Of a DNA stretch of 64,000 nt, positions 7,326 to 38,913 are shown in pieces. Positions within the stretch are counted from its first letter, which is position 1, and every line of letters starts with the position of its first letter. The notes beneath the pieces were generated by a model. The model ran no database searches. It was given only the letters and a program-made list of their open reading frames with translations, and was not told the origin of the DNA. Position numbers and translations under genes: made by a program. The stretch comes from a bacterium. GTDB taxonomy: Bacteria > UBA8248 > JACPRG01 > G963555815. Location of the stretch: contig OZ244653.1 of assembly GCA_965218795.1 (NCBI GenBank), positions 352,001-416,000 of the forward strand, given 5' to 3'.

Positions 7326-9620
7326 CTACGCCGTCGCTGACCCTTTCTCTTCTAATCCCATCATCACCTTTTCCGGCGTGATTGGCAAGGATGCAATTCG
7401 CACGCCAACGGCGTGATAGATGGCGTTCGAGACGGCCGCGGCCGTAGGCACGATCGCGGGCTCGCCTACGCCTTTGGCGCCGTAGGGGCCTGTCGGCTCG
7501 GACGATTCGACGAAAAAGCTCTCGATATCCGGAACGTCCTGCATGGTGGGAATTCGATAATCGTAAAAATTGGGGTTGACCACGCTGCCGTCCCCCATGG
7601 TGATGTCTTCCATGAGGGCGTACCCCAGCCCTTGGGCCACGCCGCCCTCGACTTGGCCCTCGATCGCCAGCTCATTGATCACCCTGCCCACGTCGTGGCC
7701 CGCGATAAACCGCAGGATCTTCACGAATCCGGTCTCCGTATCCACTTCCACCTCCGCGACGTGGGCGGCAAAGGAATACCCGGTGGAAACGTTGCCGTAC
7801 TTGTTCGGCGCAGGAATCACGACGTCGGGGGGAGAAAAGGATCCGATGCCCATGATGGGATTGCCCGCCGCGGAAAAGGTCGCCGTGCGGGCCACCTCTC
7901 CGACGGTGATCTTCCGATCTGGATGCGCCTTGACGTAAACCTCTCCGGACGCGAGGTCCAGGTCGTCCGGGCTGCACTCGAGCAGGTTCGCCGCATGGTC
8001 CACAATCTGACGCTTCGCATCCCGGGCGGCGTTCAGGACCGCGTTGCCTCCCAGCGTCGTCGTCCGGCTGGCGAAGGCCCCCAGGCAGGCGGGCGTGATG
8101 TCGGTGTCCACATTGGAAACCCGCACCGACTCCATCGGCAGGGACAACTCCTGGGCCGCGATTTGGGCCATGACGGTCCGGGAGCCCTGCCCGTAATCCA
8201 CTTCTCCGGTCAGGACATAGACGTTCCCGTCCTCATTGACCTGGACCTGTGCGGAGGAGCCGTCGAATTCCTTGAAGAACCCCCGAAATCCGGAAACGTG
8301 AATGCAGCTGGCCAAACCGACGCCCCGGCGATACCTGCCATTGACGCCCGAGGCATCCCTTCTTCGCTCGGGCCATTCAATCGACCTCATTGCGTTTTCA
8401 ATGCATTCCCTGAGTCCGGTGCTGCCAATATAGAACCCGTGGGTCGTCGTGTCGTCCTTTTGGACGATATTTTTGAGGCGCAGATCGGCCGGGTCCATCC
8501 CAAGCTCTTCGGCGAGCATGTCCATGGTGGACTCCAGGGCGAAGGCCCCTTGTGCGTTGCCGAACCCGCGGAATCCTCCGGAAGGCGCTTTGTTCGTATA
8601 GACCAGCCGATACCGGCTCCGGATGTTGGGAATCCGGTACATGTTGTCGATGCGGTAGGCCGCGATGCCGGTGATGGCCGGGGCGTAATCCGTATAGGCG
8701 CCGTTGTCGGCGAGAACGTCCGCATCCTTGGCCAATAGGTAACCCTGCTCGTCCGCCGCCAGCTTGTTGTAGATCGTCATGGCCACGCGGGGCCGGGTGG
8801 CCATGAACTCATCTCCCCGCGTGTGGTCGATGCGGACCGGTTTTTTTGCGTCCTTGGCCAGCAGCGCGGTGATGAGGTGCATGCGGTGCTCCATCTTGGC
8901 GCCGAACCCCCCGCCGATGAACGAGTGAATGATCCGGACGTCCTGCGAGGACATTCCGAGGATCTCAGCGTAGCGCATCTTGCACATCCAAGGGTTTTGG
9001 ACGCCCAGGTGAAGCGTCAGCCGGCCCGTGGGGTCGTACTCGGCCACGGCCGCCATGGGTTCCATGTAGCACTGGTGGACGCTCGATGTCCGGTAGGTGT
9101 TTTCGGCGACGGCCGCGGCCCGGGCGAAGGCGTCGTTCGGGTCCCCGTGGAGGATGTCACCCTGATTGGCGATGTTGTTCTCCACGTCATGGAGGGCGGG
9201 CGCGCCGTGCCGGACCGCCTCGGCGGGCTCAGTCACGAAGGGAAGCTCCTCATACTCGATTTCGATCAGCTCCAACGCCTCTTCCGCAGTATCCGGGTCG
9301 ATAGCGGCGACGGCGGCGATTTCTTCACCCGCGAAACGGACCTTGTCTTTGGAGAGGATGTATTCGTCGGCGATGATGGGTCCGTGCATGATGTTGCGTG
9401 GATCGTCCCCGGTCACGACGGCCTTCACCCCCCGAAGGGCGCGAGCCTTGGAAGCGTTGACGTTCAGGATGCGGGCGTGCGGATAAGGGCTCCGGAGGAT
9501 TTTTCCCCAGAGCATGCCGGGAAGATTCAGATCCGTGACGTACCGGCCGGCCCCCTGGGCCTTTTGCGGCGCTTCCACGGAAGGAACCCGTTTTCCGATA
9601 TAGGTGGTTGAGTCCGGCAT
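7326..9620 (-). CDS. Xanthine dehydrogenase/4-hydroxybenzoyl-CoA reductase family molybdopterin-binding large subunit
   Basis: LRSPYPHA, HQCYMEP, GGGFGAK, FRGFG, GQGSRT, ASRTT, GQVEGG and AKGVGEP motifs; 764 aa. Confidence 0.92.
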   Translation of the reverse strand: MPDSTTYIGKRVPSVEAPQKAQGAGRYVTDLNLPGMLWGKILRSPYPHARILNVNASKARALRGVKAVVTGDDPRNIMHGPIIADEYILSKDKVRFAGEEIAAVAAIDPDTAEEALELIEIEYEELPFVTEPAEAVRHGAPALHDVENNIANQGDILHGDPNDAFARAAAVAENTYRTSSVHQCYMEPMAAVAEYDPTGRLTLHLGVQNPWMCKMRYAEILGMSSQDVRIIHSFIGGGFGAKMEHRMHLITALLAKDAKKPVRIDHTRGDEFMATRPRVAMTIYNKLAADEQGYLLAKDADVLADNGAYTDYAPAITGIAAYRIDNMYRIPNIRSRYRLVYTNKAPSGGFRGFGNAQGAFALESTMDMLAEELGMDPADLRLKNIVQKDDTTTHGFYIGSTGLRECIENAMRSIEWPERRRDASGVNGRYRRGVGLASCIHVSGFRGFFKEFDGSSAQVQVNEDGNVYVLTGEVDYGQGSRTVMAQIAAQELSLPMESVRVSNVDTDITPACLGAFASRTTTLGGNAVLNAARDAKRQIVDHAANLLECSPDDLDLASGEVYVKAHPDRKITVGEVARTATFSAAGNPIMGIGSFSPPDVVIPAPNKYGNVSTGYSFAAHVAEVEVDTETGFVKILRFIAGHDVGRVINELAIEGQVEGGVAQGLGYALMEDITMGDGSVVNPNFYDYRIPTMQDVPDIESFFVESSEPTGPYGAKGVGEPAIVPTAAAVSNAIYHAVGVRIASLPITPEKVMMGLEEKGSATA

Positions 9621-10003
9621 CGGCTATCCTCCTCTTGGATTGATTGTATGAGGCAATCTGGATGAGCGCAACCGGGAAAATGACGTTCAACCTCATCTTG
9701 CCGGAATTTAACGCTTTTTGGGGGTCACTCATGGAAGATTCCGGAAAGAGCCGATGGCTCGGCGTTCTGCCCGGACATCGAGCATTACGCGTCTGGTCAG
9801 ATAGAGGAAGGCCCCCATGTCGAACGCAGTCCCCTCTATCGATTCCCCAGGGGAGCGCGGAAGCTTCGGCCCCTGCATGGAGCCTGGCGCCGGGCAATAC
9901 AACCAACGGAGCAGGCCAAAGCCTGCGCGCTGCCTCCGAAGCCGGGCGGATAGGGATCGCTCGAATCGTGGAAGGGGGAGCACCCATTGCGCTGACGCCG
10001 GCT

Positions 10004-11056
10004 TCAAGAGCTCAGGCAGGATTCAATCACGGCCAACGCCCGGTCGATTTCCTCTTCGGTGACGTCCAGGTGGGTGAGGGCTCGGAAACGGGTTCCGCCG
10101 AGCATGCTCACCAGAACGCCGCGATCTTTCAGGGCCGCCGCCAGGTCCTTGGCCTTCTTTCCCGATCTGGCGATGTCGAAGACGACGATGTTCGTCGGCG
10201 TCGTCCCGAACGGCAGATCGACGTTCGGCATTGAGGCCATGCCTTCGGCCAGCTTCTTCGCCTTGGCGTGATCTTCCGCCAGCCGTTCGACGTGGTTCTT
10301 CAGCGCGTAGAGACCGGCCGCCGCCAGGATTCCCGCCTGCCGCATCCCGCCGCCGAGCATCTGCCGGACCCTTCGGGCTTCCTCGATCAGGTCCTTGGGA
10401 CCGGCGACCAGCGACCCGAAGGGCGCGCCGAGTCCCTTCGACAAGCAAAAGGAAAGGGTATCGGCGTTCCGCGCGATCTCCGCGACGGGCACGTCGGACG
10501 CAACGCTGGCATTGAACACCCGCGCGCCGTCCATGTGAAGCGGTATGCCCTGGTTATCGGACACCTTCTTGATCGCGCGCAGGGTGTCCATGGAATAAAC
10601 GGTCCCGCCGCCCCGGTTGTGGGTGTTCTCCACGCAGATGAGGCCCGTGCGGGCGCGGGGGAGGATTGGAGGCTGAACCGCCTCTTCCACCCGCTCTGCG
10701 GAAAGAAGGCCTCCATCCGTCTGGACGGGCCGGCATTGAACGCCGGAGACGGCCGCGGTGCCCCCGGATTCGAAGTTGTAGATGTGAGACGCTGCGTCGG
10801 CGATCAACTCATCCCCCTGTCGTGCGTGCAGACGGACCGCAATCTGGTTGGCCATGGTTCCCGACGTGACGAACAATGCGGCTTCTTTTCCTGCGACCTG
10901 GGCGGCAGCCTCCTCCAGCGCGTTGATGGTGGGATCTTCCCGGTAGGCATCGTCCCCGACGTCGGCCTCCGCCATGGCGCGCAGCATCCCTGAGGTCGGA
11001 CGGGTGACGGTGTCGCTCCGGATATCGATCGGTTTCGAATGGTTCACGCTAGTCAT
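10004..11056 (-). CDS. ltaE: Low-specificity L-threonine aldolase
   Basis: DIRSDTVT, VGDD, SGTMAN, ENTHN, HMDGAR and CLSKGLGAP (PLP lysine) motifs. Confidence 0.93.
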   Translation of the reverse strand: MTSVNHSKPIDIRSDTVTRPTSGMLRAMAEADVGDDAYREDPTINALEEAAAQVAGKEAALFVTSGTMANQIAVRLHARQGDELIADAASHIYNFESGGTAAVSGVQCRPVQTDGGLLSAERVEEAVQPPILPRARTGLICVENTHNRGGGTVYSMDTLRAIKKVSDNQGIPLHMDGARVFNASVASDVPVAEIARNADTLSFCLSKGLGAPFGSLVAGPKDLIEEARRVRQMLGGGMRQAGILAAAGLYALKNHVERLAEDHAKAKKLAEGMASMPNVDLPFGTTPTNIVVFDIARSGKKAKDLAAALKDRGVLVSMLGGTRFRALTHLDVTEEEIDRALAVIESCLSS

Positions 11057-31859: not shown

Positions 31860-31933
31860 TGGAGGCGGCACCCGGATTCGAACCGGGGATCAAGGCTTTG
31901 CAGGCCTCTGCCTTACCACTTGGCTATGCCGCC
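31860..31933 (-). tRNA. tRNA-Cys(GCA)
   Basis: GGCGGCATAGCCAAGTGGTAAGGCAGAGGCCT-GCA-AAGCCTTGATCCCCGGTTCGAATCCGGGTGCCGCCTCCA: full cloverleaf, U73, encoded CCA. Confidence 0.97.
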
Positions 31934-31986: not shown

Positions 31987-32061
31987 TGGAGCGGGAAACG
32001 GGATTTGAACCCGCGACCCTCGCCTTGGCAAGGCGATGCTCTACCTCTGAGCTATTCCCGC
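31987..32061 (-). tRNA. tRNA-Gly(GCC)
   Basis: GCGGGAATAGCTCAGAGGTAGAGCATCGCCTT-GCC-AAGGCGAGGGTCGCGGGTTCAAATCCCGTTTCCCGCTCCA. Confidence 0.97.
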
Positions 32062-32136: not shown

Positions 32137-32442
32137 TAGCCGAGAGGATTTCAAAAAATATCTTCATGAATCCCCAACAGAAAGATAGAGCGGGACACCT
32201 CCTAGCGTCCACGGTGAAACTCGGAAAAATCTGGATTTCAGAGAAGAAAGCCAAATAATGCGGAATTATACACTTGATCCAGCCGGCCACTACATGTGGG
32301 AAACCGGCCCTCGAATCCCCCGACCACAAGATGTAGCGGTTGACAAGCCAGCCCTCCCCGGCCGAAACTGAAGCCTCCTTTTTCACAATCGAATGGGTCA
32401 TGAAGAGCCTTCAGGGAAAGCTCTCTTTCGGGGCAGGAGTGC

Positions 32443-32643
32443 ATGGCACTGGATGAGCTTCTCCATTACCTGGATTCGGAAGTATGGGGTAATGAAGTAT
32501 GGGCCATTGGGGTTATCATCGTCTCAATCTGGTTGTTCAAAGTGGCCGTGAAAGGAGAATGCGAGAAAGGGGACAGGATCCTGTTATTCTTCGGCGCTCT
32601 CACGATACTGGTTGGAGCCCTTTGGATATTTTCTTGGGATTGA
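32443..32643 (+). CDS. Small hypothetical membrane protein (66 aa, 2 TM)
   Basis: AGGAG RBS; two hydrophobic stretches (VWAIGVIIVSIWLFKVAV; ILLFFGALTILVGALWIFSW). Confidence 0.55.
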   Translation: MALDELLHYLDSEVWGNEVWAIGVIIVSIWLFKVAVKGECEKGDRILLFFGALTILVGALWIFSWD

Positions 32644-32651
32644 AAGTTTGA

Positions 32652-32730
32652 TGGAGCCGGGGGCGGGATTTGAACCCGCGACTCACCGGTTAGCAGTCGG
32701 CGCCCTTAAGCTAGGCTTGGGTACCCCGGC
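32652..32730 (-). tRNA. Non-canonical tRNA or pseudo-tRNA: anticodon GCT (Ser), short variable loop, U73
   Basis: GCCGGGG TA CCC AAGCCTAGCTTAA GGG C GCCGA CT-GCT-AA CCGGT GAGTC GCGGG TTCAAAT CCCGC CCCCGGC T CCA. Acceptor stem 7/7, T-stem 5/5, encoded CCA; D-loop lacks GG; A31-C39 mismatch. Confidence 0.75.
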
Positions 32731-32765
32731 TCCGTCAATTATTTTGGACAAAACCTCAGAAAATC

Positions 32766-32794
32766 TTGACATTGGAACTGATTCAGATTAAGGT
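32766..32794 (+). promoter_or_regulatory. Sigma70 promoter driving candidate sRNA
   Basis: TTGACA(32766-32771)-N17-TAAGGT(32789-32794). Confidence 0.55.
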
Positions 32795-32800
32795 GGGATT

Positions 32801-32882
32801 GGTTTTGACGATCTCACCCTGCCTAAATCATTTTGAGTATGACACCCGCCTGGAGTTCCTGCTCCGGGCGTTGGTGTTTTTG
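32801..32882 (+). ncRNA. Candidate ~80-nt small RNA
   Basis: Bounded by the upstream promoter and a terminator-like hairpin ACACC-CGCCTGGAG-ttcctg-CTCCGGGCG-tt-GGTGT-TTTT; no convincing ORF inside. Confidence 0.4.
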
Positions 32883-32911
32883 AGAAAGAACACCATATCC
32901 AAGTGAAAATC

Positions 32912-32941
32912 ATTATAATTCAACGACATGTTGTGGGTCAA
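32912..32941 (-). promoter_or_regulatory. Sigma70 promoter pointing toward the non-canonical tRNA
   Basis: Minus strand TTGACC(32941-32936)-N18-TATAAT(32917-32912). Confidence 0.55.
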
Positions 32942-33135
32942 GGGATCTTGAGATTGGCTACTCGAGATGCGGAGGCAGGGATTGATATTCAGATTTTGGA
33001 TCTTTGATTTTGGATCTGGCAGGAAGCCCTCTACATCTTGTGGTCAGCCGGTCGGAGCTCGGGGTCTACATATAGTGGCTTACTGCGTCAAGGGTATAAT
33101 AGCCGTTCTTTGACTGTATCGACGGCTGTCCCTGT

Positions 33136-33295
33136 GGTATCGACAATCCAGGAAGTAGAGAAGGTTCACATCCAGCGGGTCCTCAGCCATACCGAGTGGC
33201 AGATTTCCAAGGCCGCCAGGATACTGGGCATCGATCGAAGGACGCTCTATCGAAAAATGGATAGCTACGAGATTCCCAATCTCAAGTCACGCTAG
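33136..33295 (+). pseudogene. Remnant C-terminal Fis-type HTH of an NtrC-family sigma54 activator
   Basis: TIQEVEKVHIQRVLSHTEWQISKAARILGIDRRTLYRKM is HTH_8-like; no AAA+ (GAFTGA) or receiver domain upstream. Confidence 0.75.
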
Positions 33296-37875: not shown

Positions 37876-38913
37876 GTGTCGGAATTTCGACTCAATCCGG
37901 CGACGAACGAATGGGTGATCATCGCGGCCGACCGCGCCAAACGGCCCGATGCCTACCACCGGCATGATTCGGAGAAGATGGATTTTCCGGAATGGGAGGA
38001 AGACTGCCCGTTCTGTTTTTGCAATGAGCACATGACGCCCCACGAGATCTATCGGGACCCCCCCACTCCCGATACTTCCGGTGAATCCCGCCCCTGGCAA
38101 GTGCGAATCGTCCCGAACCTGTATCCTGCCTTGGATGCTTCCGGGCTTTCAGATGCCCGCGAAGGAGGCGACTGCTTTCATCGCCTGGAGGGTGTTGGGC
38201 TCCACGATGTCGTCATCGAGCATCCCGATCATAACCGTTTCACCCCCTTGATGAACGCCGATGAGATCGAGCGGGTGTTGTGCGCGTTTCGGTGGCGATT
38301 TGAACAAATTCGTGAAGACCCCCGGATCCGGCTGATCACGATATTCAAAAACCACGGCTGGTCCGCGGGGACGTCCCTGGTCCATCCCCATTCTCAAATC
38401 ATTGCCACCCCTTTGGTGCCGTTCACCGTCAGTTCCCGGCTGGATGCGGCGGTCCGTTACTTCGAACAGTGCGGACGGAGCGTCTACCGGGACATGCTGG
38501 AGGCGGAGTTGGAAGACGGTAGGCGGATTGTTTCCGAATCCGATCGCTTCGCCGCCTATTGTCCGTATGCGTCGAGATTCCCCTTCGAGGTGTGGATCCA
38601 GGCGAAAAGGGAGTGCCCGTCTTTTGGGGCCGTCACGCCGGATGATGTGAGGGATTTGTCAGCGGTCCTGGGCGACGTCCTGGGAGCACTCTATGAGGGC
38701 CTGGGAAACCCTTCGTTCAACTATGTGATCCGGACGGCGCCCATTGCCGATCAAGACAAGCCATACTCCGCGTGGCACGTCGAGGTTATCCCTCGCATCA
38801 CAACGACGGCGGGGTTTGAAATGGGCTCGGGAATCACGATTAATGTGACCGTGCCGGAGGAAAACGCCGCCTTTCTCCGCAGAGTCATGGAAGACCGGAT
38901 CTCGAGAGAGTGA
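37876..38913 (+). CDS. galT: Galactose-1-phosphate uridylyltransferase family (HIT)
   Basis: RAKRP, CPFC, VPNLYPAL, FKNHG..AGTSLVHPHSQI, AGFEMGSG. Confidence 0.88.
   Translation: MSEFRLNPATNEWVIIAADRAKRPDAYHRHDSEKMDFPEWEEDCPFCFCNEHMTPHEIYRDPPTPDTSGESRPWQVRIVPNLYPALDASGLSDAREGGDCFHRLEGVGLHDVVIEHPDHNRFTPLMNADEIERVLCAFRWRFEQIREDPRIRLITIFKNHGWSAGTSLVHPHSQIIATPLVPFTVSSRLDAAVRYFEQCGRSVYRDMLEAELEDGRRIVSESDRFAAYCPYASRFPFEVWIQAKRECPSFGAVTPDDVRDLSAVLGDVLGALYEGLGNPSFNYVIRTAPIADQDKPYSAWHVEVIPRITTTAGFEMGSGITINVTVPEENAAFLRRVMEDRISRE

Follow-up and report, generated by a model that had tools for sequence, protein, structure and literature searches.

A tRNA gene with a cysteine-type body and a serine anticodon in a strain-variable IS1595-type cassette

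The subject of this report is a transfer RNA (tRNA) gene in a 64,000-nucleotide stretch of bacterial DNA (hereafter the window; positions 352,001 to 416,000 of contig OZ244653.1, assembly GCA_965218795.1, lineage UBA8248). It is a genuine cloverleaf tRNA gene that combines a cysteine-type body with the serine anticodon GCU, and it is carried by a strain-variable cassette with the ends of IS1595-type insertion sequences (IS). The gene belongs to a small family of tRNAs in which the anticodons are GCU, GGA and UGA; a decayed copy with GCA belongs to it as well. On the reading preferred here, which is drawn from sequence comparison and given about an even chance, this would be a mobile tRNA-Cys-type gene, weakly active at serine codons and maintained as selfish cargo of the cassette. 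An initial annotation of the window had described a serine anticodon on a body of Cys/Gly type; the location of the gene in a strain-variable IS1595-type cassette was not recognised there.

Natural tRNAs in which the anticodon and the amino-acid identity do not match are rare, and offer a view of the flexibility of the genetic code. The present case, in which a single Cys-type body bears three different serine anticodons and is linked to one transposon family, is compact and directly testable, and should surprise specialists. If CysRS charges these tRNAs, cysteine appears at serine codons and a transposon can spread them, this would be a mobile source of mistranslation; if not, the case still documents tRNA genes as insertion-sequence cargo and selection filtering the drift of anticodons.

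Structure of the odd tRNA

ARAGORN identifies the gene as tRNA-Ser(gct), at window positions 32652-32730(-) with the anticodon at position 37, and it scores 49.0 bits against the Rfam tRNA family RF00005 (gathering score 29; E 1.9e-07 for the 64-kb window). Its sequence on the minus strand is GCCGGGG-UA-CCCA-AGCCUAGCUUA-AGGG-C-GCCGA-CUGCUAA-CCGGU-GAGUC-GCGGG-UUCAAAU-CCCGC-CCCCGGC-U-CCA. This gives an acceptor stem of 7 bp (GCCGGGG/CCCCGGC), a T arm GCGGG-UUCAAAU-CCCGC, the anticodon loop CUGCUAA, a 5-nt variable loop (GAGUC), the discriminator U73 and an encoded CCA. The initial annotation had listed the stems, the anticodon loop, the short variable loop, U73 and CCA, and all of these are present in the ARAGORN call and the Rfam alignment. 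It had also pointed to a D loop without GG that can pair alternatively as AAGC/GCUU, and the minimum free energy (MFE) fold agrees; AAGC and GCUU are paired within the 11-nt D loop, and the acceptor and T arms are kept (-36 kcal/mol, z -2.18; equally good folds in 5 of 200 shuffles). Two features had been overlooked, namely the A.C mismatch at 31:39, which is non-standard in the Rfam alignment, and A.A at 13:22.

The host genome (G000; 5.17 Mb, one contig) already has a complete set of canonical long-arm tRNA-Ser genes of 90-92 nt, with GCU (92 nt), UGA, CGA and GGA isoacceptors, and the odd tRNA is therefore an extra one. tRNA-Sec is encoded as well. Descent from the host tRNA-Ser or tRNA-Cys was rejected, as there is no close similarity; global alignment with the neighbouring tRNA-Cys yields 52 identical positions only, in keeping with the earlier statement that the gene is not a copy of this neighbour. 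The nearby tRNA-Gly(GCC) has 19 identical T-arm bases in common with the odd tRNA. An origin as a relic of an island attachment site at tRNA-Gly was discarded: all positions of the acceptor stem are paired, and relatives occur at other places.

Relatives and the anticodon pattern

When the 79 nt of the odd tRNA were compared by BLAST with 41 related genomes, the sole near-full-length match was in G013 (78% over positions 4-79); the remaining matches cover the T arm and the 3' acceptor strand only. The G013 relative is a flawless 76-nt cloverleaf with the anticodon GGA, a 4-nt variable loop, U73 and CCA (69.4 bits against RF00005). A second relative, in G036, has 77 nt, the anticodon UGA, a short variable arm and U73 (49.2 bits). 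Pattern scans over 51 genomes of the phylum lead to the same three genes: the short-arm GCU pattern matches G000 alone, and the short-arm NGA pattern matches 23 places in 12 genomes, among which ARAGORN leaves only the G013 (GGA) and G036 (UGA) genes as short-arm U73 tRNAs. The other NGA matches are pieces of long-variable-arm tRNAs, a repeated tRNA-like element in G029, or places without a tRNA call.

Since these scans fixed the anticodon, the search was repeated with an anticodon-blind body pattern (TANYCAAG, D loop, AGR, YTNNNRA, short loop, GGTTCRAWTCC, ten bases, TCCA). In the same 51 genomes, it matches 43 places in 40 genomes. Canonical tRNA-Cys(GCA), present once in each of these genomes, accounts for forty matches; the remaining three belong to the odd tRNAs, whose anticodons GCU (G000), GGA (G013) and UGA (G036) are all serine anticodons. 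The odd tRNA is thus found in only 3 of the 51 genomes, in a family that spans two families of the phylum. Among the three sequences, both bases have changed at 10 of 20 Watson-Crick stem positions with pairing kept, and the only broken pairs are A31.C39 in the window tRNA and U49.C65 in that of G036.

Wider searches added little to the family. No additional close member came from a single-sequence covariance model applied to the 51 phylum genomes, and the model's matches scoring near the G013 tRNA are canonical tRNA-Gly or tRNA-Phe. A scan of genome contigs for the D-arm and T-arm patterns returned 43 loci, mostly archaeal tRNAs, with one family member (L039), whose tRNA is identical to that of G013. 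In viral contigs, the body pattern started at CAAG gave at least 120 matches at no fewer than 119 loci. Among the matches listed (at least 120), 110 have GCA, four UUG, three CAU, and one each GUU, UCC and CGC; no serine anticodon is among them. Viral scans for the Cys body with GCU and with NGA anticodons gave 0 and 0 matches.

A metagenome scan for short-arm GCU tRNAs with U73 and CCA returned 32 loci, and ARAGORN confirms a short-arm GCU tRNA in seven of them (L111, L120, L121, L123, L132, L135 and L139, with L123 and L135 having the same sequence). These seven are heterogeneous, and several lie within phage-like tRNA clusters. The other loci comprise seven long-arm tRNA-Ser(UGA), one tRNA-Cys and 17 without a tRNA call at the match; no IS1595 transposase was found near the short-arm GCU matches in these 32 loci. 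L120 (14483-14557 of its metagenome contig) is another short-arm tRNA with a Cys-like body and GCU, and has A8. A U73 tRNA with GGU and a C at position 33 was seen at L026 465-541.

Amino-acid identity and synthetases

The three odd tRNAs have in common with tRNA-Cys U73, U8-A9, a D arm of the form NYCA-AG..A-AGRN, A13.A22 and a short variable loop. The Cys-type core of the window tRNA (A13.A22, G15, short variable loop) is present, and the encoded CCA is a further likeness to bacterial tRNA-Cys. The window tRNA departs from bacterial tRNA-Cys in the anticodon (GCU for GCA), in the second acceptor pair (C2-G71 for G2-C71), in its 11-nt D loop, which has no GG, and in A31.C39.

With the anticodon masked, nine of the ten nearest neighbours of the window tRNA, and likewise of the G036 tRNA, are tRNA-Cys; the library for this comparison held 1028 tRNAs from the fetched loci and G000, and it is enriched in tRNA-Cys and was partly selected by the body pattern. 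The closest neighbours are phage-type tRNA-Cys variants (e.g. L278, L316) with CCCAAG...AAGGG or CUCAAGAGGUU..AAGAG D arms, and the window tRNA is closer to these than to the host tRNA-Cys. Of the Cys/Gly-type body that had been proposed initially, the Cys part is upheld by the body pattern and the masked neighbours; the Gly part is not supported, as neither G3-C70 nor C36 is present.

The identity sets applied here (Cys, Ser, Gly, Thr) are those of PMC9976931 (Table 1 and identity sections). From the Cys set, the window tRNA has U73, G34, C35, C3-G70 and the Cys-type core, and has lost A36 and G2-C71; the G013 and G036 tRNAs have G2-C71 and lack C3-G70. From the Ser set, it has the serine anticodon GCU; the long arm is absent, and U73 and C2-G71 stand in place of G73 and G2-C71. 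According to the same sections, bacterial seryl-tRNA synthetase (SerRS) depends on the long variable arm, and the anticodon is no SerRS determinant.

Charging by another enzyme, be it the threonyl- or glycyl-tRNA synthetase (ThrRS, GlyRS) or SerRS in an arm-independent mode, is judged highly improbable. For ThrRS, all four acceptor determinants in Table 1 of PMC9976931 (G1-C72, C2-G71, G4-C69 and G5-C68) are present in the window tRNA, as are G34 and U36; G35 is missing. For GlyRS, the window tRNA has U73, G1-C72 and C2-G71, but not G3-C70 and C36. The relatives differ: both have G2-C71 and anticodons without the Thr and Gly determinants, so that C2-G71 and C35/C36 of the Gly set are absent as well. 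As to SerRS, its reliance on the long arm speaks against this route, and the genome has one ordinary SerRS only. Animal mitochondrial tRNA-Ser, in the account of these sections of PMC9976931, also combines a serine anticodon with the absence of a long variable arm, and is served by a specialised mitochondrial SerRS; the window tRNA, in contrast, has a Cys-like body in a genome whose single SerRS is of the ordinary bacterial kind.

One cysteinyl-tRNA synthetase (CysRS) and one SerRS score above the cut-off in each of five genomes checked (G000, G001, G011, G013, G036), and no extra copy of either was found in these genomes. The route through SepRS and SepCysS was also rejected for G000, where SepRS has no match and the best SepCysS-like match reaches 31.3 bits (cut-off 365). 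The search for an additional CysRS or SepRS that the initial annotation had suggested thus came back empty. Short CysRS-like matches in G036 and G013 were judged unrelated. The one in G036 (L097 1495-1692) is a 65-aa open reading frame (ORF) that equals the N-terminal portion of CysRS with the HIGH motif and comes immediately behind a GTPase-like gene of 395 aa that has a His-rich stretch; the ORF resembles a second cysS in truncated form, and G013 has the like at a similar place.

The cassette carrying the tRNA

The features around the odd tRNA are collected in Table 1. The inverted repeats of the cassette are about 80 nt long and consist of cgNGA-TTATACMCTTGAC, then ..CCACTAnATGTAG, about 25 nt, and then GACCACAAGATGTAG; at the left end, similarity to a sister cassette (B, see below) runs on to about 32390. 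Besides the tRNA, the cassette holds only the 66-aa ORF. No Pfam family was found for the latter, and among three candidates scored it matches itself and one 81%-identical relative only. There is no transposase inside the cassette, and tblastn with IS1595 transposases is empty at the locus; no dedicated synthetase or partner gene was seen in it, and BLAST of the cassette against plasmids and phages gave no match. The single promoter-like site compares with 1.5 expected in shuffles, so that the count is not significant.

Table 1. Positions of the odd tRNA gene, its cassette and neighbouring features in the window.
Feature	Position	Strand	Evidence or remark
Odd tRNA: 7/5 cloverleaf, anticodon GCU, U73, encoded CCA	32652..32730	-	ARAGORN, Rfam, fold
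Cassette, 844 bp, inverted ends, no transposase, mobile-insertion-cassette type	32261..33104	.	carries odd tRNA
Left terminal inverted repeat (cggaa-TTATACACTTGAT..CCACTACATGTGG..GACCACAAGATGTAG)	32261..32336	+	
Right terminal inverted repeat (ggcta-TTATACCCTTGACGCAG..CCACTATATGTAG..GACCACAAGATGTAG)	33031..33104	-	
66-aa hydrophobic ORF in cassette, convergent with tRNA	32443..32643	+	orphan, may not be a gene
Promoter-like site TTGACC-18-TATAAT, about 180 nt upstream of tRNA 5' end	32912..32941	-	11/12 positions
HTH_8 C-terminal remnant of NtrC-type regulator gene, cut off at cassette's right end	33105..33295	+	HTH_8 E 2.8e-16
Canonical tRNA-Gly(GCC), 200 bp from cassette	31987..32061	-	ARAGORN, Rfam; 73 bits
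Canonical tRNA-Cys(GCA)	31860..31933	-	ARAGORN, Rfam; 69 bits

The cassette varies between strains. In public contigs from runs X9 and X11 (other studies), position 32260 is joined to 33105 by 3172 other letters, and the segment replaced is exactly 32261-33104. Run X5 contains both the 3172-letter form and contigs that are identical to the window across the cassette segment, and an 89%-similar variant is present in this run as well. In X20, a run that is presumably RNA, only pieces of other tRNAs align, over the T arm of the odd tRNA, and they carry no information on its expression. The regulator remnant beside the cassette amounts to the last 60 or so codons; the 3172 letters might hold the rest of this gene.

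The surrounding region, 31.8-33.8 kb, has a GC content of 0.43-0.54 (about 0.64 around it) and few ORFs. In G001, a genome of the same genus, about 330 bp separate tRNA-Gly from the gene homologous to that at 37876. There are 5.8 kb between the two in G000, and this whole stretch is missing from G001.

Sister cassettes and the IS1595 family

Two further cassettes in G000 have the same inverted ends. Cassette B (G000:C1:944721-945500, L142) is 780 bp long; cassette C (G000:C1:3051294-3053403, L143) is B interrupted by an IS3-family element (orfA 93 aa, orfB 310 aa), and its 8-bp target duplication is GAAGAAAC. Solo cassette ends occur at two more G000 sites. Over the 51 phylum genomes, the end pattern is found in two, with seven ends in G000 and two exact ends in G004, which belongs to another genus. 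Looser end matching in G004 reveals three elements, and one copy interrupts an IS1380-like transposase gene with the 8-bp duplication TATGAGTG. Cassettes of G004 lie at L156 9495-10442 and L155 5733-8343. One cassette of G004 holds a transposase gene of the IS1380-like kind; one, at L156 from 6716 to about 8440, has ORFs of 144 and 295 aa, with no function assigned.

The family assignment is provided by element E (G000 4625872-4628203), which has closely similar ends and an 8-bp duplication (TTTCCTTC). Its ends begin TTATATACTTGA(G/C).CAG, those of the window cassette TTATACMCTTGAYSCAG. One ORF of element E has the domains PF12762 and PF12760 of the IS1595 transposase, and there are two passenger ORFs. 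The cassette ends presumably fit an 'ISNwi1-type' end consensus. Movement is evident from copies with different cargo at different loci, and from the presence or absence of the window copy between public runs.

IS1595-family members are usually flanked by 8-bp duplications, according to PMC8101967, and the sibling copies and element E, with the same kind of ends, agree with this. The arrangement also resembles mobile insertion cassettes, described in PMC4337579 as passenger DNA between IS-type inverted repeats without a transposase of its own. The window copy is unlike both in that its passenger is a tRNA gene and that it is without a target duplication.

Further elements of this type in G000 include miniature ones of 160-410 bp, whose ends, gg(g/a)aa-TGATACGCTTGAC, are related to those of the cassette (examples at 324105-324265, 1749001-1749371, 2553682-2553892, 3631789-3632150, 4241603-4241921 and 4884329-4884737), and a 7-kb element with similar ends around an IS1595 transposase gene (4233234-4240254).

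Cassette B, and hence C, has a homologue of the odd tRNA at the corresponding end, with the anticodon GCA, A13.A22 and D-loop GG. Its flanks are those of the window tRNA, TTGACGGA before it and TCCATCAAA from U73 onward; neither ARAGORN nor Rfam calls it a tRNA. In the initial annotation, homologues with GCA and an intact D-loop GG were named as a sign of simple decay or sequencing error. The cassette B copy fits this description, but is a broken pseudo-tRNA, and the two intact relatives carry other serine anticodons.

Six loci of other cassettes and IS1595-type elements in G000 and G004 contain no tRNA-like sequence. The odd tRNA is therefore cargo rather than part of the transposition machinery. 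The same result argues against a non-translational role, either as a processing or stability module for the cassette transcript or as a decoy for anticodon nucleases, which is given only a very slight chance. Such a role could account for the order in cassettes B and C, where a 103-aa zinc-ribbon ORF precedes the tRNA-like element on the same strand, and for the G013 tRNA, whose leader and trailer (L109 7071-7080 and 7156-7165) are complementary over 10 bp including CCA. However, a structural module needs no serine-restricted anticodons, and no nuclease or toxin gene was seen nearby.

The relatives, too, have IS1595 neighbours. The G036 tRNA is 328 bp away from the start of an IS1595 transposase gene (318 aa); that of G013 is found some 650 bp past a DUF1508 ORF and an IS1595 transposase whose reading frame is split. 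The two transposase genes have 72% DNA identity. No convincing inverted repeats or second copies that would define element boundaries were found around either tRNA.

The G036 locus (L108) has three further features. Immediately downstream of the odd tRNA, there is a separate genus-wide repeat of about 150 bp (9927-10078), with dozens of copies in both G036 and G013. Between a tRNA-Val and the 3' end of the IS1595 transposase gene, there is a degenerate tRNA-Cys-like fragment (8395-8455), whose D arm is identical to that of the canonical tRNA-Cys and which contains ..UCGCAAA... The tRNA-Val itself is enclosed by a 22-nt inverted repeat (8225-8246/8346-8367).

Origin and possible activity

In the preferred reading, a tRNA-Cys(GCA) would have been picked up by an IS1595-type element. 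The window cassette would be non-autonomous, and movable in trans by IS1595-family transposases encoded elsewhere in the genome. The family may have kept its cloverleaf via compensatory changes, with anticodons wandering among GCA, GCU, GGA and UGA only; in the window tRNA, the move would have been from GCA to GCU. GCU and GGA can each be reached from GCA, and UGA from GGA, in a single step. Two of the nine one-step neighbours of GCA are serine anticodons (GCU, GGA), and the four anticodons form a network of single steps around Cys, with Ser for all members other than the Cys one.

The single CysRS may charge the odd tRNAs, or may recently have done so, through U73 and the Cys-type core. Efficiency would be lower because the anticodon determinants are partly lost, and a little cysteine would be placed at serine codons. 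The restriction to serine anticodons would be explained most simply if the tRNA is charged with Cys, which is isosteric with Ser; variants with other anticodons would be more harmful, and hence purged. The odd tRNA would then serve no host function and travel as selfish or neutral cargo. Any charging that does occur would probably be weak and due to the single CysRS, and the window copy, without G18G19 and with A31.C39, is probably partly eroded and weak.

Several points weigh against this. The absence of G18G19 and the A31.C39 pair are both signs of erosion, and together with the dispensable cassette and the dead B copy, in which the T and anticodon stems are broken, they mean that the window copy may be weak or dying; U49.C65 in the G036 tRNA is likewise consistent with plain decay. 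The serine-only pattern comes from three tRNAs, probably related, and the same three sequences served to write the body pattern. With the anticodon masked, the ten nearest neighbours of the G013 tRNA are mixed (six Gln, two Cys). GCA is a major CysRS determinant in the identity sections of PMC9976931, and charging by CysRS may therefore be negligible. Cargo status is evident for the window copy only, as no convincing IS boundaries were seen around the G013 and G036 tRNAs. Finally, the window cassette has no 8-bp target duplication (AAATAATG against GTTCTTTG); as it also abuts the regulator gene remnant, a rearrangement after insertion is indicated.

Taken further, these points lead to the rather unlikely alternative of a dead passenger: a tRNA-Cys pseudogene in the cassette that is neither processed nor charged, with serine anticodons that reflect chance or shared descent. 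The damage in the window, G036 and cassette B copies, the decaying low-GC region with its truncated regulator gene, and the dispensability of the cassette across strains would all fit. Inert sequence should, however, drift to any anticodon and lose its stems. Instead, the non-GCA members have three different serine anticodons and no other, half of the stem positions have changed in a compensatory manner, and the G013 copy is flawless.

The remaining alternatives ascribe more activity to the tRNA than the preferred reading of a weakly active, selfish passenger does. IS1595-family elements might spread a working Cys-identity tRNA that reads the serine codons AGY, UCC and UCA, and so form a mobile module for ambiguous Ser-to-Cys decoding, in which the anticodon is free to move among serine codons as the only tolerated substitution; judged from the sequences, this is unlikely. 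Adaptive ambiguous decoding, with regulated insertion of Cys or another residue at serine codons to the benefit of host or element, is distinctly improbable. The serine anticodons on a Cys-type body, stems kept by compensatory changes, persistence in two families of the phylum and the strong promoter-like site in the cassette could be taken in its favour, but the tRNA occurs in few genomes, is strain-variable and eroded in the window, and has no dedicated synthetase or partner gene within the cassette.

Comparison with known systems

No literature report was found of a tRNA-Cys-type tRNA with serine anticodons, nor of an IS1595-family cassette with a tRNA gene as its cargo. The closest parallels are the irregular tRNAs that PMC5389517 (Mukai et al.) describes, which include allo-tRNAs, selC* tRNA-Cys and a U73/GCU 'E-loop tRNA1'; a review is available in PMC7609411. 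In these accounts, they too are extra tRNAs, often in mobile or toxin-antitoxin contexts, whose anticodon is uncoupled from the acceptor identity, and the U73/GCU species is not charged by Escherichia coli GlyRS and ThrRS. They have an 8/4 or 9/3 architecture, long variable arms or an extra loop, and occur in acidobacterial polycistrons, whereas the window tRNA is a plain 7/5 class I cloverleaf with a short loop in an IS1595-type cassette.

A further parallel is provided by actinobacterial tRNAs that combine proline identity with other anticodons.

Other tRNA-like elements

Two additional tRNA-like elements are present in G000. The first (L322 589-659(-), equivalent to G000:C1:3898388-3898458) is 71 nt long and is called a short tRNA-Ser(gga) by ARAGORN; it matches the Rfam tmRNA family end to end (49.1 bits, gathering score 47) and looks like the tRNA-like domain of a tmRNA without the middle. 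The second (L323 554-637, equivalent to G000:C1:3751553-3751636) is 84 nt long, with the anticodon UGG, an extra arm and no encoded CCA (35.9 bits).

The repeated element in G029, a genome of 8 Mb, is a tRNA-like repeat of 74-75 nt, with AGA in the place of the anticodon, that is present in about a dozen copies (L077, L081-L091). These copies adjoin other tRNA-like repeats (CUA, AGC), and may be foreign DNA in that assembly.

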